Assembly: GCA_963796685.1 (NCBI GenBank)
Contig: CAWCMR010000011.1
Location: 128,001 to 192,000 of the forward strand
Length of the DNA: 64,000 nt
Direction: 5' to 3'
Source of the DNA: an uncultured delta proteobacterium
GTDB lineage: Bacteria; Myxococcota_A; Polyangia; Fen-1088
Part shown: one piece after another, positions 24,097 through 41,173 of the stretch
Numbering within the stretch: position 1 is the stretch's first letter
How the letters are laid out: each line of letters starts with the position of its first letter
Notes under the pieces: generated by a model
Database searches by the model: none
What the model saw: the letters and a program-made list of their open reading frames with translations, nothing else
Told to the model about the DNA's origin: nothing
Program-made: the position numbers and the translations under genes

Positions 24097-24250
24097 TCAT
24101 TTCGACGAGGCTCGCAGCCGTCCTTCGAGTCGATCCAGGACTTCACTCCAGGGTCTTGCCTCGTTGGCATCACCAGCCCGATGGGCGGCCAAGCGTTCTA
24201 GTGCAGCGGAACCTGATCGGCGCTGGCCACGATCCGATCCCATAGAGCCT
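24097..24250 (-). pseudogene. Duplicated 3' fragment of addiction-module antitoxin
   Basis: Near-copy of 28051-28225 with an internal deletion. Fused in frame to the HEPN gene. Confidence 0.75.
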
Positions 24251-24497
24251 GGTCATGAGCCAGGACATCGCGCAGACCTGCGATGCCTCGCCATTCCACG
24301 ATGGGGTAGCGCCCTCTCACCTCGGCAGGGATCCCTTTCGCTGCCTCTCCCAAGACGAAGAGGTTGAACATGACGGCGTCCAGAATTTGTTGGTTGGAGG
24401 CCAAGCTCGCCGCGTCCGGGATGCCCGTGGCGTATGCGTGCGCCCTTGTGGCCGCAGCGAGCATGTCGCGCAGACGGATGAGGTAGTCACGCGACAT
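24198..24497 (-). pseudogene. HEPN (DUF86/HepT) ribonuclease toxin, truncated and chimeric
   Basis: [18 protein letters not shown]...[13 protein letters not shown] (Rx4H), then switches to antitoxin sequence [15 protein letters not shown]. Confidence 0.8.
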
Positions 24498-24778
24498 GGA
24501 TGGCTTCGCGCTCGACACGCTCACGTAGCTCGGTCCTCAGGGCCCGCTCTGTTACCAAGTCCACGCGGCGACCAAGCAAGTCCTCGAAGAAAGTGCTTCA
24601 GACCCATGTAGTGGCCGAACGTGGCCGCGCCCCGGAAGGACACCAACAGGTCGACGTCGCTCTGCTCGTGGTCCTCGTCGCGAGCCACGGAGCCGAACAG
24701 CAACAGGGACTGCACGTCGAAACGCGGAAGCTCGCCCGCGTGGGACCGAATGGTTTTGATGATTCGCTCGCGTTGCAT
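24487..24778 (-). CDS. MNT (minimal nucleotidyltransferase) antitoxin, frameshift at ~24590
   Basis: LFGSVARDE...SDVDLLV, continuing in another frame as [17 protein letters not shown]...EAIHVA*. Confidence 0.85.
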
Positions 24779-24857
24779 GACCTTGGGAAGAGTGTACGTC
24801 GCACGCGATGGAAGGCCAAGGCCAAGGCCAGGCTCGTCGCGGACCTGTCCTTGCCGC

Positions 24858-24921
24858 CCTCTTGACACGTTCGCATATTCCAATAACAATTCGTGTCACT
24901 TGCCCGCCACGGAGGCGCCTG
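24858..24921 (+). promoter_or_regulatory. Repeated sigma70-like promoter plus leader module, copy A
   Basis: TTGACA-17 nt-AACAAT followed by CACTTGCCCGCCACGGAGGCG. Also found at 28359 and 31921. Confidence 0.65.
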
Positions 24922-25003
24922 TAAACACTCGTGGCATACCGCCAAGGCGTCGATATCGCCGCACGGGTGCGAGACGCCCTCTCTGGATCCCTGACGCCAT
25001 CGC

Positions 25004-25991
25004 ATGAACCTGGTCGATTCACTCTGTGCCCACGCGAGCCCGGTGGTTGCCTTTCGGGCAAGGCGGCTGCTCGGCGGCGAGTCGGAGCGCTCGTCCGCCT
25101 TGCGCAAGCTGCGCCGGGCGATCGGCTCGTCGGAGATGGCGACGCGTCTCCTGATGGCTCTGCACGGCGAGCGCTTCAACCCCTACCGCAAGTGGCAGGG
25201 GCCGCACTGGACGTTGTACTCGCTGGCGGAGATCGGGTTCCCTGCCGGGGATCAGAGGCTGCTTCCCCTGCGCCAACGCGTGATCGACTGGATGTTCGCG
25301 CCAGCCTTCCTGAAGGCACCAAGCACGGTGGTCTTCCCAGGCCAGCCCAAACGACCGCGGCACTGCGCATCGATGGAAGGCAACACCCTCTGGTCGCAGC
25401 TCGTGTTGGGCATCGTCGATGACGAGCACGTGCCGCTTCTCGTGGACCGCCTGATCGCCTTCCAGTGGCCGGACGGAGGATGGAACTGCGACAAGCGACA
25501 GGACGCGTGCGTATCCTCCGTGCAAGAGACGCTGCTCCCGCTTCGGGGACTGGCCGCGTGGGCCCGTGCCACGGGAGACGAGCGAGCGCGGGGGGCCGCG
25601 AAGCGCGCGGCGGAGCTCCTGCTCGATCGGCGCCTGCTCTGGCGCAGGCGGGATGGCGTGCTCATCGGGCCCGAGTGGGGAGGTCCCGTCGACAAGGTCC
25701 ACCAAGGTCCACTATCCCATCCGGTTCTACGACGTGCTGAGTGCGCTGCTCGTGATGACGGAGATGGGCGTCGTTCGCGATCGGCGCTGCCAGGATGCCC
25801 TCGATCTCCTGGAACGGAAGCGTCTCGCCGACGGCTCGTTCCCGGTCGAGTGGACCAACGTGAAGCAGGCCGACCGGATCGAGACCCGCGCGACCTTTGC
25901 CGACTGGGGCCCGCTCCACAAGAAGAAGGGCAATCCCCTGGTGACCGTGGACGCGCTCTACGTGCTCAGGGAGGCCGGCCGAGTAGGGTGA
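25004..25991 (+). pseudogene. Prenyltransferase/squalene-cyclase-like alpha/alpha-barrel protein, frameshifted by a 10-bp duplication
   Basis: PYRKWQGPHW, QWPDGGWNCD and HYPIRFYDVL motifs. CAAGGTCCAC is tandemly duplicated at 25693-25712. Confidence 0.7.
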
Positions 25992-26029
25992 AGCGGAGGT
26001 AGCCACGCGACCTGGTACGGGGCGAAGGT

Positions 26030-26082
26030 CGTGGCTGTGGCCGTGGCCGACGTGATCTTGTTCGGCCAAGGCCACGGCCACG
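26030..26082. repeat. GC-rich hairpin (GTGGCC/GGCCAC hexamer palindrome)
   Basis: CGTGGCTGTGGCCGTGGCCGA pairs with TCGGCCAAGGCCACGGCCACG. Confidence 0.6.
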
Positions 26083-26294
26083 TGGACGACCACGAAAACG
26101 ACCGCCCTTCGTCGCTCCTCTGGGGGCAAGCATCGGGCGTGGAAAGGGGGCTCCTTCTGAAGCCGTCACAGCAGAGCCACCGAGGCGACGAGACCGAAGA
26201 AGAAACCTCCGCGCTTCTTGCCGAGCTTCATGACTTTCCGAGGATTGGCCGATGCCTCACCGACCGTGATGCTGCGGGGGAGAACGATTCCTTC

Positions 26295-26474
26295 TTAAGG
26301 CGCCTTCTTGGCCGTCCCGGCACGCCTGGGTGGCAGGTTCACGACCTTCCGTCCGCTCGCCGCCTGGCGAGACCTAGCTGCTTCCGCGATCTTGCGCAGG
26401 TCATCGTTGGACGTCTTCGCAATCGCCTCGCGAATGGCGTGAATCTCCTCGATGATGGGATCGGATAGTGGCAT
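26295..26474 (-). CDS. Small TA-associated protein (DPIIEEIHAIRE type), orphan
   Basis: SDPIIEEIHAIREAIAK motif typical of small partners of PIN toxins. Fragments recur at ~23039-23095 and ~27905-27955. Confidence 0.6.
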   Translation of the reverse strand: MPLSDPIIEEIHAIREAIAKTSNDDLRKIAEAARSRQAASGRKVVNLPPRRAGTAKKAP

Positions 26475-26534
26475 CGGCCTAGTCTCTGCCAAGGATGTTG
26501 CCTGTACGGCGGAATGGAATCCAGCAGGGAAATG

Positions 26535-27215
26535 TCATCGAGTGCCGTTCTTCTCGAGGGAGAACCGAACGAGGTCTCCCATATAGACCGCATAGACCTT
26601 GGCAGCCTGCTCATCGACCCAGATATCGTTGGTTCGAAGAGCCAGCCCGTGCAGCACGCGGACGGGCGTGAAGGTAAACTGCTTTAGATCGTAGCGCCCG
26701 ATGACCGACTTCCCCTTCTGCCAGTCAGCCGACGAGGCCCAGATCTTCCCTGAAGCCGTGGCCTGGAGCGGATTCACCAGCTCATACGGCAGCGGCTCGA
26801 AGTTACCTTCAACCTTCTTCACCGCGCCCGATCCCGAATCGAGCAGGTAGTATTCGGCACTCTCCGGGCCCTGGAAATTCCAATCGCTGGGAAGTCCCCG
26901 CGGATCCGCGCGTGCGCGTTTCACCAGGATCCCTCCTGGGGTCGGCAGCATGGGCAGCATCTCATTGGCGGTGGGGATTTCGACGCGGCTCAACTCTCTG
27001 GTCTGAAGGTCGATCCGCGCGAAGTAGCTCGAGTGCCCCCATGAACGGAGATCCGTTTTGTCGACGACGATGGCTCTCCCATCGAGCGAAACAAGCGGCG
27101 TTGACATCTTCCCTGCGACAACCAAGTCGACTTGGCCGCCCGGGGACACGCGCCAGAGCCCCTCTTTCTCCTCTAGCTCGCCAACGATGTACCGGAAACC
27201 GCCGTATTCGCTGGC
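26535..27215 (-). pseudogene. C-terminal beta-propeller fragment of a larger protein
   Basis: Coding-like propeller blades (GLWRV, PLVSLDGR, IWVDEQAAKVYAVYMGDLVRF). 5' end replaced by the HEPN remnant. Confidence 0.5.
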
Positions 27216-27221
27216 CCCGCC

Positions 27222-27313
27222 ATTGCGTCGAACCGCTCGCGCGTTCGGGCTTGTTCCTGGATGGCAGCGATGGCTTCCAGGATGTCGAGCAAGCGGTCGC
27301 AATCGGCTCTCAC
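27222..27313 (-). pseudogene. HEPN toxin 5' remnant
   Basis: GTG start overlapping the MNT stop: MRADCDRLLDILEAIAAIQE..., truncated after ~30 codons. Confidence 0.65.
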
Positions 27314-27606
27314 AGGACCACAGCGTCGGCAAGAACCCGCTCACGAAACCGATCGCCGAGGCCCCGCGCACTGACCACGTCGACCCGGCAACCCAGGACG
27401 GCCTCCAGATCCAGCACGAGCTCACCATGGTCCATGAGGCTGCGCCCACTATCAAAGTCGACCACCAGGTCAAGGTCGCTGCCCGCGACCGCATCGCCAC
27501 GGGCGACCGAGCCAAACACCCGCACATTGCGTGCACCATGACGACTCGCCAGCGCGAGTATCTGATCCCTGCGCTCTCGAAGATGGTCGAGCGTCAGTCC
27601 CGGCAT
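27310..27606 (-). CDS. MNT nucleotidyltransferase antitoxin
   Basis: RHGARNVRVFGSVARGD...SDLDLVV...LEAVLGCRVDVV. Confidence 0.9.
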   Translation of the reverse strand: MPGLTLDHLRERRDQILALASRHGARNVRVFGSVARGDAVAGSDLDLVVDFDSGRSLMDHGELVLDLEAVLGCRVDVVSARGLGDRFRERVLADAVVL

Positions 27607-27954
27607 CTGCTTCACCCGATCACTAGGCTACGCCGCTCCGAGCGCTGGCGCAACTGCCCCACGACGTCGTCGACGTCGTGTCCCCCACGACGTTCGCCGG
27701 AGGTCGGGACGTCGAACCGGCGGCAGCTCACGGGCACGACCATCGGCTCGCGCGCACACGGCGGCCTGGCAGAATCGTCGAAAGCCTTCACGAAGGCCAT
27801 TTGTCGAGGACACGAACACGCAAGCTCATCGAGTGCGCGTGTTCCATGAGGAATCCGAGCACGCCGGTGTCGGGCGAGGATTGGCCCACGGAACACCGGC
27901 CGTGACATCGCCTCGCGAATGGCGTGAATCTCGTCGACGATGGGATCGGATAGC

Positions 27955-28055
27955 TCGATAAATTCACCACCAAGACCCGACTGTTCGCGGTCGTACCACA
28001 GCGCTGCCTCGAACATGTCCAACTCCGCTTCTGGGCGGACACGGAGCGCTCTCAT
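27955..28055 (-). pseudogene. ParE/RelE toxin 5' remnant
   Basis: MRALRVRPEAELDMFEAALWYDREQSGLGGEFIE, then fused to a DPIVDEIHAIRE fragment. Confidence 0.75.
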
Positions 28056-28300
28056 TTCGACGAGGCTCGCAGCCGCCCTTCGAGTCGGTCCAGGACTTCA
28101 CCCCATGGCCTCGCCTCGTTGACATCACCAGCCCGATGGGCGGCCAAGCGTTCCTCAAGGATCTGACGCTGCCACTCGTGCAGCGGAACCTGGTCGGCGC
28201 TGGCCGCGATGCAGTCCCAAAGCGATTGCACATAGTCGATCTTGTCCTCGACCGTGAGCTCGTCGAATCCTGAAGGCGGCATGGGCAATGGCTGGGGCAT
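28052..28300 (-). CDS. Addiction-module antitoxin (TIGR02574-like)
   Basis: LTVEDKIDYVQSLWDCI...WQRQILEERL...PWGEV. Overlaps the ParE start. Confidence 0.85.
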   Translation of the reverse strand: MPQPLPMPPSGFDELTVEDKIDYVQSLWDCIAASADQVPLHEWQRQILEERLAAHRAGDVNEARPWGEVLDRLEGRLRASSK

Positions 28301-28358
28301 GACCAGAGTATACAGCGCCAGGTTCGTGCAAGGCACCGCCTAACGGGCCTTCGTCACT

Positions 28359-28422
28359 CCTCTTGACACGCTCCGCCTCTCCCGATAACAAGCCGTCTCA
28401 CTTGCCCGCCACGGAGGCGCCT
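28359..28422 (+). promoter_or_regulatory. Repeated promoter plus leader module, copy B
   Basis: CCTCTTGACACG...GATAACAA...CACTTGCCCGCCACGGAGGCGCCT. Confidence 0.65.
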
Positions 28423-28427
28423 AAAAC

Positions 28428-28486
28428 CACCTCGCCCCGCGCAGCGGGGAGAGGTCGCCGAGCGCAGCGAGGCGGGTGAGGGGCTG
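28428..28486. repeat. REP-like repeat, family A (inverted copy)
   Basis: Reverse complement nearly identical to 41414-41472. Confidence 0.8.
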
Positions 28487-28499
28487 CCCCGGTGTGGTA

Positions 28500-28908
28500 C
28501 AGGACGGTCTCGCGGCACGCCTGTTTCCGTTCGTGCGCACCGGCGACAGCGACGAACCCAGGGCCATCGTGGTCGCCCCCCGGATTCTCGTTCGGCAGGC
28601 CGGTCTTGGCGAAAACCGGCATCCCGGCCAGCACGGTGGTCAGTCGCCTCAAGGCTGGAGAGTCCCTGGACTCGATAGCGTCCGACTACGGCATCACCCC
28701 CGAACAAGTCACCGATGCCATCCGCTGCGCACTCCCGGCCGCTGCCTGAGCCTTGGGTCTTCTTCCTCGACCGCCCCCTTGGGGCCGCCTGGTGTTCGAA
28801 GCACTGCGCGCCATCGGCGAAACCGTCGAGGCACACGACACCCACTTCTCCAAGAATGCGACTGACGTGGAATGGCGGGGCGTCGTCGGGCGCAAAGAAT
28901 GGGTCTAG
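28500..28908 (+). pseudogene. DUF433 antitoxin 3' remnant plus VapC45-like PIN 5' remnant
   Basis: SFGRPVLAKTGIP...AGESLDSIASDYGI...AIR, followed by FFLDRPLG / EALRAIGETVEAH...DVEW...GRKEWV, frameshifted and truncated. Confidence 0.65.
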
Positions 28909-29043
28909 GAGCAAGTAATTCCGGCCTTCACGGGCCGAAGCAAGGAAGACACCTCCTCCTGGCGAAACCGGGAGGAGGTGGCGCCACCGACCATCTTGCT
29001 GGCGCACAGACGGCAGCCCTGGCAGAATCTCTGGGAGACGAAC

Positions 29044-29295
29044 ATGCAGGCCCACCGAGTGCATGTCACCATTCCCGAAGACCACAAGGTCATGATCGAA
29101 GTTCCCGCGGAAGTGCCCACGGGCGACGCCGAGGTAATCGTACTGTCCAGCGCATCCCTGGGCGCGCCCCAGCCTGCCGACACAACCTTCGCCGCGCGTT
29201 TTCGTCCAAACCCGGCCTTGGGGCCGATTGTATTCCATGAGGATCCGACCACGCCATTGTCGGAAGAAGATTGGCCTTCGGATCTGCGGCCGTGA
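29044..29295 (+). CDS. Putative antitoxin
   Basis: VTIPEDHKVMIEVPAEVPTGDAEVIVL...DPTTPLSEEDW. GTGA overlap with the PIN gene. Confidence 0.7.
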   Translation: MQAHRVHVTIPEDHKVMIEVPAEVPTGDAEVIVLSSASLGAPQPADTTFAARFRPNPALGPIVFHEDPTTPLSEEDWPSDLRP

Positions 29296-29677
29296 CGCCG
29301 GTCGTTCTCGACACCTGCGTGCTTTGGCTCGCCGGCCAGCAGGATTCGCTGAGCGCAAACGCTCGTGGCGTTCTTGCCGACCCGACCGTGGCATTGCACG
29401 TTCCGCCATCTCGGCCTGGGAGATCGCAATCAAGTCGCGGAAGGGGAAGCTTGCGTTACCCAGCGCAACGGAAGCTTGGTGGCAAACCTTCCTAAACAGC
29501 TTCGGCGTGCATGAGGTTGCCGTGACCGGAGCCATCGCGATGGGTGCAGTCGCCGAAGAACTTCCCCACGGAGATCGAGCCGATCGCATAGTTGTGGCAA
29601 CTGCTCGCAGCCTCGGCGCAAAACTTCTGACCGCGGACAAGATCCTGCGAGAGACGATCCCCTTCGTGGTTTGGTAG
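29292..29677 (+). CDS. vapC: VapC PIN toxin with frameshift at ~29401
   Basis: VLDTCVLW in one frame; SAISAWEIAIK, HGDRADRIVVATA and LLTAD in the next. Confidence 0.8.
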
Positions 29678-29974: not shown

Positions 29975-31474
29975 TCATGGCTTCAGCACCTCGTATCTCG
30001 TGGATGAGCTCGCGCCCACCTTGCGCAACAATCCAAGCTCGGCCAGCTGCTTGAGGTGGCGCTGTGCCTTGCGGGCATCGAATCCCAAGTGCTCGGCATA
30101 CTCCATCCGCGTGACAGAAGTCTTCGTGGCCAGAAACGCCCAGCCTTGCTTCTCGTCGACGTTCAGGGCCCTCAGCACGTCGGCGTTCAAGGCACCAACC
30201 GCCGCCTGGGCGTGTCGGTAGATGGTCAGGTTCAGGTAAAGTCCATCGAACGCATACTTCGGCACGGGCAACCCATACCTGTCAGCAGCCTCGCCGAAAG
30301 TCCGCATGCCAAAGCCTCGCCCCTCCACCAGTCTTGTTCCGCCAAACGCGAACTGCAACTTGGGATTCCGGTTGTACATCGGCGCGGTGAATGCCTGCAT
30401 CTGCGCCACCGTGATGGGAGAAAGTGGCGCGCCTGGACTGCGCACCGTAACCGAATCCGACGTCACCACCAGATGGCAAGTAGCCCCTACCAGGTCGTAA
30501 TCACGATGCACGAGAGCATTGATGACCGCCTCTCGCACCAGCTCGAAGGGCAACGAGGGACGCTCCCGGCGGGTCATCCTGCTCCGGTCAATCACGGTCG
30601 GCAGCTTCGGACGTAGCCACGCCTCCATGCGGTCGGGAATCAGGATAGTCGGCCCATCGAAGTCCCGAATCTCGTGCGTGCCGTCGGGAAACTCTATCGT
30701 GGCATTCAGACCGGCGTGGTGCAAAACCTCGCGCGGGGCCTTTCCAAAAAGCAGCAATCCAAACCCAGTCGGTACCAGCTTCGAGCCGCGATGGCGAAGT
30801 AGTCCCTGGCGCTCAAGCCGTTGCAGAAACGTGGCCGACGTCGCCTTGTCCGGAATTTTCGTGCGTTCGCGATAGCGAGCCAAAGCGGCTGACGCCAAGT
30901 CGTCTAGCACCGCGCCAGCCAGCGCTTCATCCCAAGGTGAGAGCGGCGCGTGCTTGACGGCCTTCCCATCCTTGGCCTCGGCCGCGCGTTGCAATGCCTG
31001 GGCGATGAACTCCTTGTTCGCCTGACCTATTTGCTCCTGCAAATCAAGATCGAACAGGTAGACCTTGATGCCGTTCTCCTCCAGATACCGAATACCCTGT
31101 CGGTCCACGGCGGGGTCGGGGTCTTCGATGCCCACCCAAACCTCGGCAATCCTGGCGTCTACGATGCGTTCGGCACAGGCCAGTTTGGGATGTTTTCGCG
31201 CTCCTGGCGCGCAAGGTTCCAAGGTAGCGAACAACACCGAGCCATCGAGGCGCTCGTCACGATGCTTGCGCTCGAGCAGCGTGTATTCCGCATGGTCGCC
31301 GTGGCGAAGCTCGCCACGAAACGCGGTGTCGAGCGTTCCGTCCGGTTTCACCAGGACGGCACCCACCAACGGGCTCGCCTTCTTGTCGGCGCGCGGCTCG
31401 TTGACGGACAGCTTCATCACGTCGATGGCTTTCTCCATCATCTTGCGCGGGTCGAATTTGGACTTGGTGGGCAT
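29975..31474 (-). CDS. Zn-dependent deaminase fused to HATPase_c_4 (RecG-C-like) and HTH domains
   Basis: HAE and LEPC...C deaminase motifs, REAVINALVHRDY, SPG, RNP, EGRGFGM, terminal wHTH. Confidence 0.85.
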   Translation of the reverse strand: MPTKSKFDPRKMMEKAIDVMKLSVNEPRADKKASPLVGAVLVKPDGTLDTAFRGELRHGDHAEYTLLERKHRDERLDGSVLFATLEPCAPGARKHPKLACAERIVDARIAEVWVGIEDPDPAVDRQGIRYLEENGIKVYLFDLDLQEQIGQANKEFIAQALQRAAEAKDGKAVKHAPLSPWDEALAGAVLDDLASAALARYRERTKIPDKATSATFLQRLERQGLLRHRGSKLVPTGFGLLLFGKAPREVLHHAGLNATIEFPDGTHEIRDFDGPTILIPDRMEAWLRPKLPTVIDRSRMTRRERPSLPFELVREAVINALVHRDYDLVGATCHLVVTSDSVTVRSPGAPLSPITVAQMQAFTAPMYNRNPKLQFAFGGTRLVEGRGFGMRTFGEAADRYGLPVPKYAFDGLYLNLTIYRHAQAAVGALNADVLRALNVDEKQGWAFLATKTSVTRMEYAEHLGFDARKAQRHLKQLAELGLLRKVGASSSTRYEVLKP

Positions 31475-31993: not shown

Positions 31994-32768
31994 ATGCGAA
32001 GTGTAAAACCCGCAATGGCCTCGGAGACGATGTTGGATCTGGGGCGCTATCACCTGGCCGCGCTGGCACGGGACGCGTGAGTACCGGTGGGCTTTGCCCA
32101 GCGGTACTCATCGCGGGAGATTGAAAGAACCCTCTCAGGGTTCTTTCATAGATTGCCGGGACCAAGGCATTGGCCAGCGCATTTCAGCCCGTGCAGGACG
32201 AGCTGCAAGCAGCGACCACAGCGCGCGTGGAAGCCGAAAAAGCGATGACCAATCCGCGTGTGGCTGTGCGCTTCGCCGAGAATGCGGTGGAGCGTGCGAT
32301 CCGTCAGGTGGCGCTGCTCGCCCACGGGGCGGACAACAACGCCACCGGTGGACCGGCGTTCAAGGCGTTGTTCCCGAATGGCCTCGACGCCGAGCTGCGC
32401 CCCATCGGCGCATCCCAAGTCTCGGCAGCCGTTACCTTGCGCGAGCGCCTCGACACCCAACCGGCCGCAGCCAAGGTCAAGGCGCAAGTCATGGACGACT
32501 TCGACAAGGCACTCGCCGCCTTCAGGTTGGCCATTGACGCCCGCCAAGCCGGCGAGACCAAAGTCAGCCAAGCCCGTGCCACCGAATTCGGCGCGCGCGA
32601 GCGCTTCGTCTCTGCCTACGACAGCAACATCGGAGCCATCAGGCAGCTCTTCCCGCGCGACCGCGCCCAGCAAGACCGGAACGAAGGCGGAATCGCGCCC
32701 AGCCACGCCTCGAACAACGGCGGAGGCGGTGATACACCGACCCCACCCACACCGGCGACCGACACTAG
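31994..32768 (+). pseudogene. All-helical hypothetical protein interrupted by an 80-nt insertion
   Basis: Removing 32077-32156 joins MRSVKP...LARDA to GTKALASAFQPVQDEL...LFPNGL...RQLFPRD in frame. Confidence 0.65.
32077..32156. mobile_element. 80-nt double-hairpin insertion (MITE- or IS-remnant-like)
   Basis: Hairpins at 32078-32110 and 32122-32148 (12-bp perfect stem). GC dinucleotide at both junctions. Excision restores the ORF. Confidence 0.55.
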
Positions 32769-32835
32769 GAGCAAGCAATTCCGGCCTTCACGGGCCGAAA
32801 CACGTGGAAACCGTCTCCTGGTCCACCCAGCAGGC

Positions 32836-33090
32836 GGTGACCACTCTGGAAATGGCCGTTGGGCCGACCTAGGTGGCATTTCCCGAAGTGGTGGATGCGC
32901 AGTGCGGCGGCCCAGGTGGGGGTGACCGTGGGGGAAAGGGGAGATGGGTGGACCTAGGTGGGGCTGCCCGCGGGGGAAGGGCAGGGTGGGTGGACCCAGG
33001 TCGGGCTGACAGCGGTGGGAATGGGAGATGGGTGGACCCAGGGGAGGTTGACCGGGGGGGGCCAGGGGAGGGTGACCACAGGTGGGGGAG
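32836..33090. repeat. Degenerate G-rich ~42-bp tandem repeat (~6 units)
   Basis: Units such as GGTGACCGTGGGGGAAAGGGGAGATGGGTGGACCTAGGTGGG at 32921, 32963 and 33005. Confidence 0.75.
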
Positions 33091-33205: not shown

Positions 33206-34702
33206 TTACGCTGGAAAAGCGGTACGTCGCCGCGACCGACCGGACACCCAGTCATCTGCAATTGCCTGCGCTCCGTCGTGGTCCCCGGACAGTAGCTTTG
33301 TCACAGCCTTGCGGTAGGCGTTTCGGGCTCCTGAGAAAGTGGCTGGAACCGGCAGAGGCAGAGCGGCCAAGTCCCTTGGTTCAAACTTCAGCAGGCCATC
33401 TGCGTAAATCCGCCCTACCTTGAACGCCGCAGTTCTCGTGCGAGATGACAGCAATGCAAGACTCCACGCTGCCATTTCCTCGATCGTCTTGGCGCTCTTG
33501 AACCGCACGATGTAGAGAGTGTTCGTGGCAGCCAATCTAGGCATGGTCCGGAGCGAGAGCCACGGCCCATGGATGGACATTCCGCTGAGAAACCCGTCGA
33601 TACGTGCAGGCAATGGTACCCGGTACCACGGATCCCGCTGACTGACCTTGAACCCCCTGCGATGACAGCCGCCGCGTTCCTCTTGAAGCGAAAGGTAATC
33701 CTTCACCTTAGGGTGCCTGCAAACATTGGGCGAGGGGTCGAAGAGCCAGATTCTCTCTCCACTTTCGAGATGGATGTTCCACTCAATTGGCCCTATTTCG
33801 GCAGCCCGAAGCTGTCGGGCCTTGGTCAATACCGGTCTAACTGCGTCTAGTGGAAGCCCCAAGTCGCGCCTCTCGCTTTCCTTCAGCAGGAAGAAGTGAG
33901 CATCCCCTGTTACGCCTCCAATGAGAACCTCGGCCACGTCCCCGAACCGACGTTCGCAGGAAGTGCGGACACCGCATTCCTTTGTCGCAGGTTCTACTGC
34001 TTTGGGCGCTGGATGACTGAGCGACGCGGCGAGTTCGGCCGCTGTATCGCAGTCACGCCGACCGAAATGAACGTGCGGTTCGCCAAAACCACGTCCGACG
34101 ATGACGATGCACCCGTCTTGAACATCACCGAAGAGTCGATCTCTCGTCCGGAACACGTCAAACGAGCGAAACGCCCGAGGAATGCGCTCCCTCATGACTG
34201 AGGCATAGTCGGCGTGGTCCCAGGACGCCGGTAGGATGAAGCCCAGGTGGCCCCCCGTGCGAAGTCGCTGGAGAGCCCTGCAGAGAAACGCAACCCAGTA
34301 GTTGCTGCGCAAACGAATGCGCGATCCATTGGGAAGGCTCGTGACGAGTGCAGCGTCTCTCAGTCGTTTGGGAACCCGCCCTAAGGAGAGGTACGGCGGG
34401 TTGCAAATGATTCGATCGAAGAGATGATCCGAGATGTCGGCCCAAGCGACAAAGTCGACGCCCCTTCTCGTATGCGCTAGGCCATCAGCAAGCGACGAGC
34501 ATCTTTCGATATCGAACGCATGGATCCGCTCGCGGGCAACACCGGCACCGTGAAGCGCACGAAGAAACGCCCCCGTTCCAACGCAGGGGTCCAACCACCT
34601 ATCCGCGGGGCCGCCGTTGAGCGCCCGAACGAGTGCTGACGCGAGCGGAGGTGGTGTGTACACCGTCGCAGAAGAGAGCTTATCGAATGCAAAAGAGATC
34701 AT
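33206..34702 (-). CDS. N6-adenine DNA methyltransferase (gamma group, Eco57I/TaqI-like)
   Basis: YTPPPLA, motif I LDPCVGTGAF, motif IV NPPY, GFILPASW, C-terminal TRD-like region. Confidence 0.9.
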   Translation of the reverse strand: MISFAFDKLSSATVYTPPPLASALVRALNGGPADRWLDPCVGTGAFLRALHGAGVARERIHAFDIERCSSLADGLAHTRRGVDFVAWADISDHLFDRIICNPPYLSLGRVPKRLRDAALVTSLPNGSRIRLRSNYWVAFLCRALQRLRTGGHLGFILPASWDHADYASVMRERIPRAFRSFDVFRTRDRLFGDVQDGCIVIVGRGFGEPHVHFGRRDCDTAAELAASLSHPAPKAVEPATKECGVRTSCERRFGDVAEVLIGGVTGDAHFFLLKESERRDLGLPLDAVRPVLTKARQLRAAEIGPIEWNIHLESGERIWLFDPSPNVCRHPKVKDYLSLQEERGGCHRRGFKVSQRDPWYRVPLPARIDGFLSGMSIHGPWLSLRTMPRLAATNTLYIVRFKSAKTIEEMAAWSLALLSSRTRTAAFKVGRIYADGLLKFEPRDLAALPLPVPATFSGARNAYRKAVTKLLSGDHDGAQAIADDWVSGRSRRRTAFPA

Positions 34703-35424
34703 TCCTTCGCCACAAAGAGAGAGGTTGGCGGCATCGCGCGCTTAAGCACCACCCATGGTGAGCCTGCACTGTTCTTCAGTTCGTCGGTCTGCCATCTTGC
34801 GTACGCGGAAAGGCGATGCCCCTGCAGTGTGCGCCACCGTAACTGATGGTGGCTTTCTTTCGCGGCGAACTTCTCCCATTCTTCTTGGAACAGTTCCCCC
34901 AAGACAAACTCAACAACTACCATAGGCGTGGCAGGCAGGATTGGAATGCGCGGCACCGGTATTCCGCACGTGTCATGGATGTGCGAGTGAAAGAAGCAGC
35001 CTGGCGCGTCTCTTGCCCCAAGCTCCATTTTCCACCTCGTCAGCAGTGCCCCCTTTGCTTCGGGTGTTCCTCCGAACAGCGCGACGGCGGTTGAGGCCTT
35101 TCCCACAACGTAAAGATCCGGAAGATGCGAGTTCTTCTTGTGAGGGATACACGTGATCTCCCAGGTTGTCGCAATCTCCGCAAAGACTGGCTGTCCCGTG
35201 GCTTTGTCGTACTGAATGCTTGCCGCCGTAATCAGTGGATCGTCCTCCGGGATAGAGAGCACTCCCGTCCTTCTCGAGTCGCGAATCCGAGTCAAAAGCG
35301 AGCGGTACTCGCGCAGAACTCTTTCGGCTGTCGGGTAAAGAAACGATCGAGGCAATGACGCGACAAAATCGACTTCGGCGATTGTGTCTACGAAGCGATA
35401 CTGAAGTTCGCCCACCCCTGGCAT
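34699..35424 (-). CDS. Hypothetical protein with DUF2290-like C-terminal signature
   Basis: PGCFFHSHI...PRIPILPATPMVVVEFVLGELF...W. ATGA overlap with the MTase. Confidence 0.55.
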   Translation of the reverse strand: MPGVGELQYRFVDTIAEVDFVASLPRSFLYPTAERVLREYRSLLTRIRDSRRTGVLSIPEDDPLITAASIQYDKATGQPVFAEIATTWEITCIPHKKNSHLPDLYVVGKASTAVALFGGTPEAKGALLTRWKMELGARDAPGCFFHSHIHDTCGIPVPRIPILPATPMVVVEFVLGELFQEEWEKFAAKESHHQLRWRTLQGHRLSAYARWQTDELKNSAGSPWVVLKRAMPPTSLFVAKE

Positions 35425-35429
35425 GGTGC

Positions 35430-36557
35430 TCAGATCTCGGCCTTCTCGCGGTCGTCCTCGACTACCAGCGCACGCAGCCGGGGGTGCTCACGAACGTCGC
35501 CCAGCAATACCCACGCGGGTTCAGCGTAGGCCGGCCAGTCGTCCGGTTGAATTCTGACTGCAGCAGAAACCGGCACTGCGGGTTCAGTTGGTCTCAAGTC
35601 GACATCAAGGCATTGCACGGAGTCTTTGGCCTCTAGCCGCGCAGGAGGATGACCAGCGATACCTTCGAGTCGTTCGTGGAGCAACCTAAGATCAAACGGC
35701 CGCCCGGCAGTAATGTTCCACACGAATGCATCCACGCCCGGTCGCCACCAGTGTTTCCCCTGGAAGTCTTTGAGTATCCCCGTGTATCGGAACGGCAAAA
35801 GGGCCATTGAGAGCTCAGATCCGTCATCTTGAAGGTCCGCTTTGACCGCCATGGGATCGAGACGGAGGCGAATGGCGAGCCGGGAAGCGTCCATCAAGAA
35901 GCACGGGTACGGCAGGATGCGGTGGAGCATCCAGCGAACGAACGCTAGACCATGGCTGTGGCTCGACATATTGTGAATGGGCGGATGGCACTGCTCAATC
36001 TCGAGCCATGCACTGTCTCTCCACTCGGATTGCGACAGGCCGAGGAGTGATTCGACGGAATCCCGGAGTCCAGCAAAGTCGTCGGGGCTCCAATCCTGAG
36101 GAAGGAGTGCGACGGCTTCCGCTAGCGACAACACCTGAGAGTGGAGTCTATCTGCGTCCTTGTAGAAGACCCACTCGAGGTCATGCGCGGCTGCCAGAAC
36201 ATGATTCCGCAACTCAGTTGGGTGCCCCAAGCTTAGGTCTCCTGGGTGGCCGGAGTGGAGAGCGAAGGCCACCGGCGCTTGACTCTTCTTCCGCTTCAAG
36301 TGGTCTTTCAGAAGCGCTGCGAGGCCAAGACCGGAGTGCACTTGGCATGCAAAAGGAAGGTTGTCGCGCTCCGGCCAAACCTCGAGCCGAAGGTCCAGAA
36401 GGACTAGTTGCCTCCCCAGAAGATCACGCTCTTCAAGTTCCTGCGGATGAAGCGCTGTTACCTTGGCGGCATCGCCGAACTCCGCCTGCAGGGCAGTCCC
36501 GACCGTCGACTCATCATCAGCCACCAGAATCTTTAACGGTGTTTGCGCAATAGCCAT
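35430..36557 (-). CDS. Response-regulator receiver domain plus large uncharacterised C-terminal domain
   Basis: KILVADDE, LVLLDLRL (phosphoacceptor D), HSGH and FYK positions intact. No recognisable HTH output domain. Confidence 0.8.
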   Translation of the reverse strand: MAIAQTPLKILVADDESTVGTALQAEFGDAAKVTALHPQELEERDLLGRQLVLLDLRLEVWPERDNLPFACQVHSGLGLAALLKDHLKRKKSQAPVAFALHSGHPGDLSLGHPTELRNHVLAAAHDLEWVFYKDADRLHSQVLSLAEAVALLPQDWSPDDFAGLRDSVESLLGLSQSEWRDSAWLEIEQCHPPIHNMSSHSHGLAFVRWMLHRILPYPCFLMDASRLAIRLRLDPMAVKADLQDDGSELSMALLPFRYTGILKDFQGKHWWRPGVDAFVWNITAGRPFDLRLLHERLEGIAGHPPARLEAKDSVQCLDVDLRPTEPAVPVSAAVRIQPDDWPAYAEPAWVLLGDVREHPRLRALVVEDDREKAEI

Positions 36558-36562
36558 TGGTC

Positions 36563-38926
36563 CTACTCCGCGAAAGTAATCTCAAGCGCGGTCACGAATG
36601 GCCGAGAGGATGGCGCCACGAAGTGTATCTCAGCGCCGTACTGATCGAGAATGCCTCGCGTGATTGGCAGCCCCAGGCCCATGCCTTGGCCGAGCACGGG
36701 ATCGAGTTCAGTGGTTGTCGATTCAAACGGGAGGAACCAACGCTCCCCCTCGGTGGGCTCTATCCTCTTCCCGGTATTCTCTAACAGGACGCGCACTCCA
36801 CCTTGATCGATGATCGAGGCCGTCGCCCGAATGCGTCCCCCGTCTCCGGCCGCCTTCACTGCATTGGTGAGCAAGTTTGAAAAGACCGTTGTTAGCTCAG
36901 CAGGGAACATGGGCGGCGTTTTGAGGTTTTCCGGGATAGCCGGCTCGATTCCTATGTTGCGCTTCGTGGCCGACCCTTCCACCAATTTGACCGCGGATGC
37001 AAAGCGCTCGGCGATGTTCAGCCGCACCCTCCGCCTACGTGCATCGGGAGTAAGGATGTCCGTAAGGTAGGACGCATGCCGCTCGAGGCTATGGCGAAGG
37101 TCCACCAGGGTGGCGTGAACGGTCGCGAGTTGCGTACGGGCCGAGGTCGGTAGACCCGGGTCGTTCCGAATGCGAGTCAATGCGGTGTCTGCGGCGCGGG
37201 CGACGCCCAAGAGGCCACGAACCTCATGGATGAAGCTACCCATCTGCGTGCCGACCGATGCAAGAACCCGGAGCATCGCTTCGTCTCGGCGGAGAGATTG
37301 AAACGTCGAGACGGCCTCATCGTAGAGCGGAATTGCCTTTGCGAACTTCTGGACTGCTGCAGCGAGATCGCCTCCCCCTGCGAGCCTTTTGGCCTCTCGG
37401 GTGAGCTCGACTGCCATCGCTGCAGCACCGGTCGCCTCAGTTGCCGGGCTCTCGGGACCATGAGTGTTACGCGATCCACCTTCGGTTGCCGTTTCGTTGT
37501 CGCGTGACGTTGGGTCTCTCCCTGCACGTCCAGACTGGCGTTCCTTTCGCCGCTCCGCCCTTGTGGCCTCTGAGGAGGCCGCGCGAACGCGGGTCGAGAG
37601 GTCGATGGCCGTACGGACGATGTCGACGAGTGCGTGGTAGGTGTCGTCTGGGACAAAACCCTCACGATTCACGAGCATCTCGAGGGACTTAGCGCCGTCT
37701 TCAATTAGGAGGACCGCCCCAAAGTAGTGGGCGTTGGGTAGTACGCTGAGTATCTCTTCTTGGACAGGGTCCTCCCCTGGGGCGGCATGCTTCAGATCCA
37801 ATTCGCCAGAACGTCTGGTGTATGCAGCATCAAGGCCCAGCCAGTCATTTCCAGTCTCACCGTAGGGAAGGACGCGGAATCCCTCCATGAATACTCGAAT
37901 ACCGGTGGTAGCGCGCACCCATGCTTGAGCGGTTTTCGGTGCGTTCAGAATTCCTTCTCGGACCAATATTCGGGCCTGAAAAAATGGGCCGAGTTGCTGA
38001 TTTGGATGAGCAAAGTCGTACGAACGCGTTTCCGCGTCCTTGTTCTTGTCGCGCGTTCGCACTGTCGGGGAGATTAGGACTCTGACCGGCTGCTTTGGGC
38101 TGGCTTCGATTTCGATGATCCAAGAGGCAGCCTCGAGCAAGGCTTGCCAATACTCGTCTCCGCCGCTGAAGTCACCTTCGAGAAGCACGCGAAATGACGG
38201 ATCCCTGCTGCTAGAGTCACGCACTCGCGGTTCCGCGAAGAGCGGCTTGGTCTTCAGAACGGACCTGGGCGGCGGCTTGATGAGGGACGCTGGTGGCTGA
38301 AAGCTCTGAACCTCCGCTAGGAACCGAGTCAGGGCAGCATCGCTCCACCTACGCCTCAGGTGGCGTAATTCGATTCGCGTACCACACTTCACTGAAGTGC
38401 GAACGGCGGAAGATCTCACCGATAGCGCGGCGTCCTTCTTCTTGGGTTCACCCGAGTCGTCGAGCTCGGACTGCTCAATCTTCTCAAGCGTTTCGTAGTT
38501 CTCGATGCTGTCCCAGTTGATTACCGCTTCGACCGACCTGCGGTCAGTGTTGGGCGTGGTCGACCACGGAACCGAGGAGACCTTGAGCGATCGCGACAGC
38601 TTATGGGCCGCAAGCCGACCTATGCCCTTCGCACCGGTGAACCTTCGCCCCCATCGCGTCGACCTGCGGTCCGTCGTATCTTTGGCCCTAGATGCGATAC
38701 GAAGGAATCCGTTCTCAAACTGTTCCGGAGCCATGCCTGTTCCGTCGTCCTCTATACGGATGATTCCGCCTCTGCCCGACCGAAGAGATTCTCCCCAAAC
38801 GACGACCTCGGATGCGTCGGCGTCGTAGGCGTTCTTCACCAGTTCGACCAGCGCAGTCGAGTCCCGCCCGACGAGCAGTGCGCCAAGTTCGCGGAAAAGG
38901 TGTGTATCAACGGAGAAACCGGCCAT
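36563..38926 (-). CDS. MORC/GHKL (HATPase_c_3) ATPase fused to a histidine kinase
   Basis: ELVKNAYDADA, IEDDGTGM and GAKGIGRLA (GHKL); S5-like GIRVFMEGFRVLPYG; H-box FIHEV, N-box SNLLTNAVKA, G2 GQGMGLGL. Confidence 0.9.
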   Translation of the reverse strand: MAGFSVDTHLFRELGALLVGRDSTALVELVKNAYDADASEVVVWGESLRSGRGGIIRIEDDGTGMAPEQFENGFLRIASRAKDTTDRRSTRWGRRFTGAKGIGRLAAHKLSRSLKVSSVPWSTTPNTDRRSVEAVINWDSIENYETLEKIEQSELDDSGEPKKKDAALSVRSSAVRTSVKCGTRIELRHLRRRWSDAALTRFLAEVQSFQPPASLIKPPPRSVLKTKPLFAEPRVRDSSSRDPSFRVLLEGDFSGGDEYWQALLEAASWIIEIEASPKQPVRVLISPTVRTRDKNKDAETRSYDFAHPNQQLGPFFQARILVREGILNAPKTAQAWVRATTGIRVFMEGFRVLPYGETGNDWLGLDAAYTRRSGELDLKHAAPGEDPVQEEILSVLPNAHYFGAVLLIEDGAKSLEMLVNREGFVPDDTYHALVDIVRTAIDLSTRVRAASSEATRAERRKERQSGRAGRDPTSRDNETATEGGSRNTHGPESPATEATGAAAMAVELTREAKRLAGGGDLAAAVQKFAKAIPLYDEAVSTFQSLRRDEAMLRVLASVGTQMGSFIHEVRGLLGVARAADTALTRIRNDPGLPTSARTQLATVHATLVDLRHSLERHASYLTDILTPDARRRRVRLNIAERFASAVKLVEGSATKRNIGIEPAIPENLKTPPMFPAELTTVFSNLLTNAVKAAGDGGRIRATASIIDQGGVRVLLENTGKRIEPTEGERWFLPFESTTTELDPVLGQGMGLGLPITRGILDQYGAEIHFVAPSSRPFVTALEITFAE

Positions 38927-39445
38927 CTGGGGGGTAGCGTACAGCAAGTCCCTGTGGCTTGCGACGTTTCTGGGCCTCGTTTCTGGTTCTCGTCTCCCGG
39001 GGGGCGACGGTTCCTAGTCAACGCGAAGCAGGTCAAGTCACTGGCATAACTACTCGGGTAAACCGCTACCAGCGACGCAAGCGCCAAACCAGCATCCTGG
39101 GGGCAATGCTCCCATGCCGACGATGCCGTGAAGACCGACGCAGCCGACGGCGACGGCGCCGGTGAACAGGGCCATGGAAGGGGGACCAGCAGCACCACAC
39201 CCGAGGGTGGTTCTCGAGGCTGGTTCCAGAGGTTTCGAGGAAGACACCGACAGAGTGGAGCAACCGTATTCGAGCACGCGAGCCATCGAGGCGGCAGCGT
39301 GGAAACGGTGCCACAATCTTCCGCGCGGGGCCTTGGCCCCATACCCGGGGCTCCTTGTGGTTCAGGTGGGAGAAGCACTCCGGGGCTCGCACTTGTGGTA
39401 GGAATGGGTTCGTCGGCCGGGATGTACGTAGCATCGGAGGGCACG

Positions 39446-41173
39446 ATGGTCGCAGGCACCGCGAAGAGGATCGGTCTTGTCATTGCTTCCACCCTTGCCG
39501 TCGCCGCATGCGGTGGTTCCTCGCTGAGAACCAGCAAGGCCAATGATTCAGGGACGAGCTCACCCGATCTTGGGGTGCAAGGCGATCTGGCGGCTGACCA
39601 CAATCCCGCCTACAAAGACGTGGCTGCTGACGTGGCTGGCATCATCCCCGATGCGGGATCCGCCGCTGATGCGGGCGTCGTCGCCATCGATCTCCGTCCG
39701 GATGCACCTCTCGTCAACCGCGACAGCGCGAGCCCAGATACTACCCTCATCGAGAAAGATGCTGCGAACGACGCCGCGGGCAAGCAGGACGTTGCTGCCA
39801 AGAAGGATGTCTCTTTGGACGGCGGTGGGGCGCCGGTATGCACGGGGACGCTCTTGTTCGGCGGCCTGCCCTTGGTGGAAACCGGGTCTTCCCCGAATGC
39901 GCTGGTATCGGGGGATCTGAACGGCGACCGCAGGCTGGACCTCGTGACAGCGAACGTGGGCACGAGCACGGTAAGCGTGCTGCTTGGTGACGGGACCTTC
40001 GCCGGCAGGGTGGACGGTGCGACCGGAGGACATCCAACCTCGGTGGCGCTCGGGGACTTGAACGGCGATGGCAAGCTGGACCTTGTTGCAACGAACGACT
40101 CGAGTACCCTGGGCGTGCAGCTCGGGAACGGCGACGGAACCTTCGGCACCATCGTGGGCTACCAAGACGTGTTGCCGAATTATGTGTTGATGGGTGACTT
40201 GAACGGTGACGGCAACATGGACTTGGTTGGGGCAGGACCTTGGTTGACTGTCTTGCTCGGCAGAGGCGACGGAACCTTCGCGACCACGGTGCTCGACACG
40301 AGCCTGGCCGCGGAGGCGGCGGCGCTGGGCGATCTCGATGGCGATGGCAAACTGGACGTCGTGGTGACGGCCACAAATCCGGAGGCGGTGAGGGTGTTGC
40401 TGGGCAAGGGGGACGGAACCTTCGTCGCCAAGGGGGACTACGCCATGTCGGCCATAGCGCTGGTGCTGGGTGACGTGAACGGCGATCGGAAGCTCGACCT
40501 CGTCCTTGCCATCCCTGATTCGAAGGTCATGCGCGTGCTGCCGGGCAAGGGCGATGGAACCTTTGCCGCGAGCAGGGACTATCCAACCGGCGGCACCCCA
40601 AGCGCGTTGGTGCTGGGGGACGTGAACGACGATGGCCACCTGGACATCCTTGCCGCGAGCTACGAATCCCAAAGCGTGAGCGTGCTGCTGGGCAAGGGCG
40701 ATGGCACCTTTGCAGCGAACACCGACTATCCGACTCCGAACCTCCCGACTTCCGTCGTGCTCGGTGACTTGAACGGCGATGGCGACCTAGACATCCTGAC
40801 AACGAACGGCGCCTTCGACGACGCCCTTGGCATTCTGCTTGGAAATGGGGACGGGACCTTCACCGCCAAGGACGGTTACCCAACCCTGCCTGACCTGACT
40901 CCGAAATCAGTGGCGGTGGGCGACTTGAATGGCGACGGCAAGATGGATCTGGTGACGGCGAACCACACCGGCACGGTGAGCCTGTTTCTCGGCAAAGGGG
41001 ACGGGACTTTCGCGACAAACGTGGACTTCGCCGCTGCCTCCATATGTCTACCCTGTGACGGCGGTCCGGACTCGGTGATGGTGGGCGACTTGAACGGTGA
41101 CGGTAGGCTGGACATCGTGGTCACGAACGAAGGCTCGGACACCATGAACGTGCTGCCCAACTCGTGCCAGTAG
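39446..41173 (+). CDS. FG-GAP/VCBS repeat lipoprotein
   Basis: Lipobox VAAC. Many GDLNGDGKLDLV...LGKGDGTF repeats. Confidence 0.9.
   Translation: MVAGTAKRIGLVIASTLAVAACGGSSLRTSKANDSGTSSPDLGVQGDLAADHNPAYKDVAADVAGIIPDAGSAADAGVVAIDLRPDAPLVNRDSASPDTTLIEKDAANDAAGKQDVAAKKDVSLDGGGAPVCTGTLLFGGLPLVETGSSPNALVSGDLNGDRRLDLVTANVGTSTVSVLLGDGTFAGRVDGATGGHPTSVALGDLNGDGKLDLVATNDSSTLGVQLGNGDGTFGTIVGYQDVLPNYVLMGDLNGDGNMDLVGAGPWLTVLLGRGDGTFATTVLDTSLAAEAAALGDLDGDGKLDVVVTATNPEAVRVLLGKGDGTFVAKGDYAMSAIALVLGDVNGDRKLDLVLAIPDSKVMRVLPGKGDGTFAASRDYPTGGTPSALVLGDVNDDGHLDILAASYESQSVSVLLGKGDGTFAANTDYPTPNLPTSVVLGDLNGDGDLDILTTNGAFDDALGILLGNGDGTFTAKDGYPTLPDLTPKSVAVGDLNGDGKMDLVTANHTGTVSLFLGKGDGTFATNVDFAAASICLPCDGGPDSVMVGDLNGDGRLDIVVTNEGSDTMNVLPNSCQ

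Follow-up and report, generated by a model that had tools for sequence, protein, structure and literature searches.

The window considered here, a 64,000-nucleotide stretch of DNA from an uncultured delta proteobacterium (contig CAWCMR010000011.1, positions 128,001 to 192,000), carries at its positions 33206 to 38926 a conserved and widespread four-gene cassette with a DUF2290-like component. The cassette is Ambrosia-like by layout but is set apart from that system by having neither its HNH nuclease nor its XRE regulator; Ambrosia itself is a five-gene cluster of Pseudomonas aeruginosa (AbrR-AbrA-AbrB-AbrC-AbrD, i.e. XRE, N6-methylase, kinase, receiver and HNH), reported in 2025 to block phages (bioRxiv 10.1101/2025.09.30.679545). 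Genes 1–3 of the cassette form a fixed core, while the methylase encoded by gene 4 is nearly always present but mobile, and is the least fixed part. Gene 3 fills the slot held by HNH or MBL hydrolases in sister clades; because of this equivalence, together with a set of conserved polar residues, gene 3 is the likeliest effector, its activity being putative. The four genes are as follows.

36563..38926, minus strand: gene 1, a 787-aa fusion of a GHKL ATPase module of the paraMORC type with a soluble histidine kinase (H567)
35430..36557, minus strand: gene 2, "REC-X", a receiver domain (residues 6-152, phospho-acceptor D55) followed by a 220-aa unnamed output domain, 375 aa
34699..35424, minus strand: gene 3, probable remote DUF2290 relative and probable effector, 241 aa
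33206..34702, minus strand: gene 4, TaqI/Eco57I-like amino (N6-adenine type) DNA methyltransferase with an NPPY motif, 498 aa

Anatomy of the cassette

The original prediction, made from the sequence of the window, described four coupled genes of lower guanine-plus-cytosine (GC) content than the host with an intact phosphorelay, and this is confirmed: GC is 59% in the cassette and 65% in the genome, the catalytic residues are intact, and all relay residues are invariant in the homologue alignments. Gene 1 matches Pfam HATPase_c_3 and HATPase_c and, among sequences in the PDB, ZraS and MORC2/MutL; its N-terminus also shows a likeness to BbrUII/HgiDII-family restriction proteins, albeit below cut-off (74 of 550 bits). 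Gene 4 matches Pfam Eco57I above cut-off, PADLOC MTase_II at E 1e-47 and M.TaqI at E 3e-17.

It had also been claimed that no recognisable restriction nuclease is present, and indeed there is none inside the cassette or adjoining it: no cognate PD-(D/E)xK, HNH, GIY-YIG or PLD nuclease was found via Pfam, PADLOC, NCBIfam or a fold search with gene 3. Gene 3 may nevertheless represent a novel nuclease fold, or a nuclease may lie in the output domain of gene 2.

Conservation and linkage

Loci were collected using as query an alignment of 113 gene-2 homologues, from which the best 80 of 208 metagenome loci were taken, a sample therefore biased to close relatives; four genomes besides the host (among 401 of its phylum) and one named-genome locus were added. 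Once redundancy is removed they amount to 71 distinct loci in addition to the window, mostly metagenome contigs, and coverage of named genomes is thin because the single-protein scan of genome contigs gave only the one locus. Within this set, the conserved co-occurrence that had been proposed as a check on the original prediction is clear. The ATPase-kinase lies upstream of gene 2 in 53/53 scorable loci and gene 3 lies downstream in 57/58, while a methylase lies downstream in 39/44, one of the 39 (L078) having it on the other strand. As for the five loci in which the methylase is not downstream, two have it upstream, two are on contigs cut off upstream, and in the remaining one (L001, 9893-12085) a DUF5131 gene and a GMT-wHTH gene occupy the usual methylase position. 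In all, three loci have the methylase upstream, the third of them (L084) being unscorable downstream. Further variation in this component consists of one divergent and one convergent methylase, a C5 enzyme in one case (L133), and one locus with no methylase across some 5 kb upstream and 7 kb downstream.

There is no recurrent fifth gene: among 927 flanking open reading frames (ORFs) of at least 80 aa, no family occurs in more than two of the 72 distinct loci (window included), a negative that rests mostly on the 17 loci where the full cassette is accompanied by 1 kb on both sides. HNH and MBL profiles likewise gave no matches among the ORFs of cassette loci.

The distribution of the cassette is patchy, with a strong match in 5/401 genomes of the host phylum, and two records place it on plasmids. 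A few individual loci carry additional genes. DUF5131 follows the cassette in L086 (3342-4184), and in a Rhizobium plasmid (L095, 11118-12047) a gene annotated as GIY-YIG begins 12 nt past gene 3, the methylase there being divergently transcribed; among the core-family loci seen, no other has an annotated nuclease joined to it. In a Hymenobacter plasmid (L096, 1-4847) a Piwi-domain gene and a second DNA methyltransferase directly adjoin a distant copy of the cassette.

Gene 3 and the effector slot

The wider family to which gene 1 belongs was sampled as 80 virus-collection loci, obtained from a scan with the gene 1 alignment, whose operons were walked and Pfam-scanned. In nine of these loci short receivers are followed by an HNH nuclease, and in three the receiver is followed by an MBL-fold hydrolase, while in the 15 loci having a REC-X receiver the next gene belongs in 15/15 cases to a single gene-3-related family (a leave-one-out procedure assigned 14 of them at E<=1.2e-8, and the gene 3 profile picked up the remaining one at 5e-15). 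These three sets of loci do not overlap. Other types also occur, with receivers of about 450 aa (at least some of them beside C5 methylases), or with receivers of about 400 aa and another small gene. In the latter type (L137, L139, L142, L146 and L148) this third gene belongs to an unnamed family with an R-x-E ... H-x-x-(F/Y)-x-H-x-Q motif, whose likeness to gene 3 is apparent by eye and which reaches a profile score of 6.8%.

The same division appears in a tree of the kinases (FastTree with SH-like support and a midpoint root, calculated for 64 chosen rows without L206 and the unclassified loci). The HNH loci (9 rows, SH 97) and MBL loci (3 rows, SH 100) form groups of their own, and REC-X and its relatives form a third (37 rows, SH 100); the window kinase falls in this 37-row clade, which contains all the REC-X loci, and the HNH loci group apart. 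A locus on a Deinococcus plasmid has the full Ambrosia layout of XRE-methylase-kinase-receiver-HNH. Even inside the REC-X clade the third gene sometimes differs, being a metallophosphoesterase in Halomicrobium, and on a Clavibacter plasmid (L094, 10529-11110) a 193-aa protein replaces gene 3 after a close REC-X homologue. This last protein has no Pfam or PADLOC match; judged by eye from its motif, it looks PIN-like.

Gene 3 has relatives in at least 394 cluster representatives (50% level, E<=0.001). An acid (E/D) at position 134 together with H146, R159, E177 and K228 is found in 139/139 homologues, and P141 is likewise conserved. Its AlphaFold2 model is of high confidence (predicted local distance difference test, pLDDT, 94.5), and fold searches gave no clear structural match for it.

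The original prediction called this protein DUF2290-like, and that description stands in part: gene 3 is probably a remote homologue of DUF2290, as judged from profile comparisons through an intermediate family, but it does not belong to the family proper. The first step of the bridge links gene 3 with a distant third-gene family at 94.6% (E 7e-8) and the second links that family with eight DUF2290 proteins (annotated as such or passing the cut-off) at 91.5% (E 9e-7), unrelated control profiles reaching at most 0.44%; compared directly, gene 3 and DUF2290 score 2.5%, with the same motif aligned. Comparisons of profiles against single sequences are uninformative. HMMER backing for the link is thin (1/139 homologues at E<1e-3, and 0/8 of the DUF2290 proteins at E<0.1). 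Against PF10053 the gene 3 homologues stay below the Pfam cut-off, the best being 1/139 at E 0.085, and there is no match in the host genome; the PADLOC DUF2290 model picks out 1/139, at E 0.0038. An Atlas cluster with 15% DUF2290 members scores 0.85 for gene 3, which is a lead only.

Gene 2 and its output domain

Gene 2 has 209 homologues, and the AlphaFold2 model (pLDDT 95.7) returned a receiver fold in a structure search; since the full-length protein was used, receiver matches filled the result lists. The large, conserved output domain had been described as unrecognised, and in sequence searches it has no match in Pfam, PDB sequences or Atlas. Its 220 C-terminal residues are common to the whole clade (profile comparison 98.4%) and unrelated to the tails of the short and 450-aa receivers (1% and 0.2%, respectively). 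Residues 222-244 align with an excisionase-type helix-turn-helix (HTH_17) at 14% probability, a short match of 23 columns whose score drops to 3.9% once the wider family is included. The wider REC-X consensus retains no common acidic catalytic set, and the upstream regions share no DNA motif, the best 8-mer occurring in 4/21 of them, the same as in shuffles. Predictions of a complex between genes 2 and 3 support neither outcome (median 0.02, from three discordant runs of 0.02, 0.60 and 0.02).

Relationship to known systems

The suggestion that the cassette represents an unnamed class was not borne out, as the class is in print both as Ambrosia and in an earlier prediction by Bellieny-Rabelo et al. 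(PMC8011034). With Ambrosia it shares a single cluster made up of an N6-methylase, a HATPase/histidine kinase, a receiver and one small gene, that is to say a soluble relay beside a methylase. The AbrA feature, an N6-adenine methylase, is matched here by type (NPPY, Eco57I, M.TaqI-like), as are the kinase (AbrB) and the phospho-acceptor Asp of the receiver (AbrC). AbrD has no counterpart here: gene 3 scores 0.09% against an HNH profile, Pfam HNH is found in 0 of 139 gene-3 homologues, and a profile built from nine Ambrosia-layout HNH proteins had no match among the ORFs of 86 cassette loci. No XRE gene (AbrR) appears among the recurrent flank families of the 72 distinct loci (ORFs of at least 80 aa), the fourth component is DUF2290-like, and the output domain of the 375-aa receiver is unrelated to that of the roughly 210-aa receivers of Ambrosia-layout loci (1% probability), whose kinases lie in a separate clade. 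It must be remembered that these loci were recognised by gene content alone and not by comparison with Ambrosia's own sequences. Lacking XRE and HNH, and having a different receiver output domain and a separate kinase clade, the cassette is not Ambrosia; it is a sister of that system with a different likely effector.

Pairs of a MORC-kinase and a receiver (HEF_HK, PF19191, and Response_reg_2, PF19192) beside methylases were predicted in 2021, without experiments (PMC8011034). The likeness extends to a soluble HATPase_c_3 + H-box + HATPase_c protein with no transmembrane segment, an adjoining receiver gene and a methylase neighbour, whereas the loci concerned have mostly C5 methylases, Vsr and HNH, and no conserved third gene is named in those parts of the paper that were consulted. 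Gene 1 has no PF19191 match at E<=1 (a model for which there was no positive control), and PF19192, which did match G067, was found in 0/113 gene-2 homologues at E<=0.1 and nowhere in the host genome; gene 2 reaches 3.4% against a true PF19192 protein (hhalign).

Rousset et al. (2022, PMC9122126) validated an anti-T7 system in which DUF2290 itself is a component together with a helicase; the passages seen of that paper give no activity for it. Via the intermediate family, gene 3 shares with it a [RH]-x-[DE] ... (H)P-x(2-4)-H ... R-x-P ... F-[VI]-[FL] core, but there is no helicase here, the PF10053 cut-off is missed and the N-terminal halves cannot be aligned. Prokaryotic paraMORCs, in turn, were located in restriction-modification (RM) neighbourhoods and proposed as RM components by Iyer, Abhiman and Aravind (2008, PMC2292703). 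Gene 1 resembles them in its N-terminal GHKL module, the motifs of which are intact, and in adjoining a DNA methylase; it differs in its C-terminal histidine kinase, which stands in place of a nuclease or TIR domain, and no SF2 helicase, Vsr or RE-fold partner is among the recurrent neighbours. No paper describing the four-gene DUF2290-like form was found in the literature, although Table S1 of the Ambrosia preprint (over 500 candidate clusters) may list it; it is not described in the portions available of PMC12839542 and of the Tiamat preprint (10.64898/2026.09.30.754977). PADLOC has no system that matches gene 2 or gene 3 beyond one weak match.

Proposed mechanism and alternatives

What is demonstrated here is the anatomy, conservation, linkage and slot equivalence of the cassette. 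As to function, the favoured reading, to which we would give an even chance, is an Ambrosia-like, infection-triggered anti-phage (or anti-plasmid) cassette in which signalling runs from the clamp-kinase via D55 to the gene 3 effector, and the mark made by the methylase is something other than a plain self tag. Gene 1, through its GHKL clamp, would engage DNA or a phage-induced DNA structure, and ATP-driven closure would activate its own kinase domain; phosphate would then pass from H567 to D55 of gene 2, both residues being intact. The phosphorylated receiver would license gene 3 through its unnamed C-terminal domain, directly or transcriptionally, and gene 3, with its conserved acid/His/Arg set, would most likely act on nucleic acid. 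The methylase would supply a DNA mark that the system reads. The defence role already envisaged in the original prediction is supported by analogy with Ambrosia, for which the preprint reports that all five genes are required and that the receiver mutation D60A abolished protection. The patchy distribution, the plasmid records and the low GC of the cassette also speak for this reading, as does the part that DUF2290 plays in an anti-T7 system (PMC9122126).

A classical self/non-self restriction system, with the methylase shielding host sites, the clamp finding unmethylated ones and the relay allowing gene 3 to cut, would account for the methylase lying downstream in 39/44 loci (plus 3 upstream), for the resemblance of the gene 1 N-terminus to BbrUII/HgiDII-family and PADLOC type II restriction proteins, and for the proposal that paraMORCs are RM components (PMC2292703). 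It is, however, rather unlikely. The idea that the methylase marks self, also part of the original prediction, was an assumption, and the test made of it in Ambrosia went against it: phage passaged on the methylase were still sensitive, so that methylation gave no protection, and this makes the corresponding step doubtful here. Moreover, the type and position of the methylase vary around a fixed three-gene core (C5 in L133; DUF5131 + GMT-wHTH in L001), and the restriction-family matches are confined to the ATPase part of gene 1.

Quite unlikely is a scheme in which the output domain of gene 2 would itself be the effector, or a DNA-binding transcription activator, with gene 3 as an adaptor, sensor or inhibitor. 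The size and conservation of that domain and its helix-turn-helix alignment would fit, as would the facts that the Ambrosia receiver bears a winged helix-turn-helix and its cluster is induced upon infection, and that DUF2290 elsewhere is the small partner of a helicase; yet that alignment is short and fades in the wider family, neither a shared upstream motif nor a common acidic catalytic set was found, and gene 3 occupies the nuclease slot of the sister clades. That the cassette is not anti-phage at all, but a selfish addiction or epigenetic regulatory module persisting by horizontal transfer, is very unlikely. Its mobility, patchiness and toxin-antitoxin neighbours would agree with this, and so would the near absence of PADLOC matches for genes 2 and 3, but of the tested relatives the one closest in layout acts against phages, there is a defence precedent for DUF2290 (PMC9122126), and relatives occur in virus-collection contigs, as would fit prophage-borne defence.

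Surroundings in the window

Some 1.7 kb downstream of the cassette lies a 499-aa fusion (29975-31474, minus strand) of a CMP/dCMP-type deaminase, a RecG_C-type ATP-binding domain and a C-terminal HTH (Pfam), which is plausibly a stand-alone defence gene. Beyond it, a toxin-antitoxin cluster (24198-29677) comprises HepT with a nucleotidyltransferase, a second nucleotidyltransferase, an addiction-module antitoxin, DUF433 and a PIN gene. Between the end of gene 4 and the next gene (32826-33074) there are imperfect G-rich direct repeats, two copies about 85 nt apart and 71% alike, with a weak related stretch on contig C25. Near 32765-32799 contigs of two sequencing runs diverge from the window sequence, a hint of a variable junction. 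On the upstream side the neighbour is an FG-GAP repeat protein (39128-41173, plus strand), many related repeat genes being present in the sequencing runs.

Significance

That a phosphorelay beside a methylase can act in defence is known already, which limits the surprise. What it is that MORC ATPases sense in bacteria has been a question since 2008, and Ambrosia provided the first phenotype for the kinase-fused form; with just four genes and no XRE layer, the present cassette is a compact version, and sensing, relay and output could therefore be dissected by single mutations. Should gene 3 be the effector, both a fold without a solved relative and the DUF2290 family gain a testable activity. 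More speculatively, and on balance unlikely, DUF2290-like proteins could constitute an unrecognised catalytic effector fold that is switched on post-translationally by the phosphorylated receiver, a MORC-type clamp reading the state of DNA, be it methylation or structure, and a His-Asp relay triggering immunity without a transcription step. Were this true, it would supply a function for DUF2290 in the helicase + DUF2290 system and would also define the largest effector branch sampled here.

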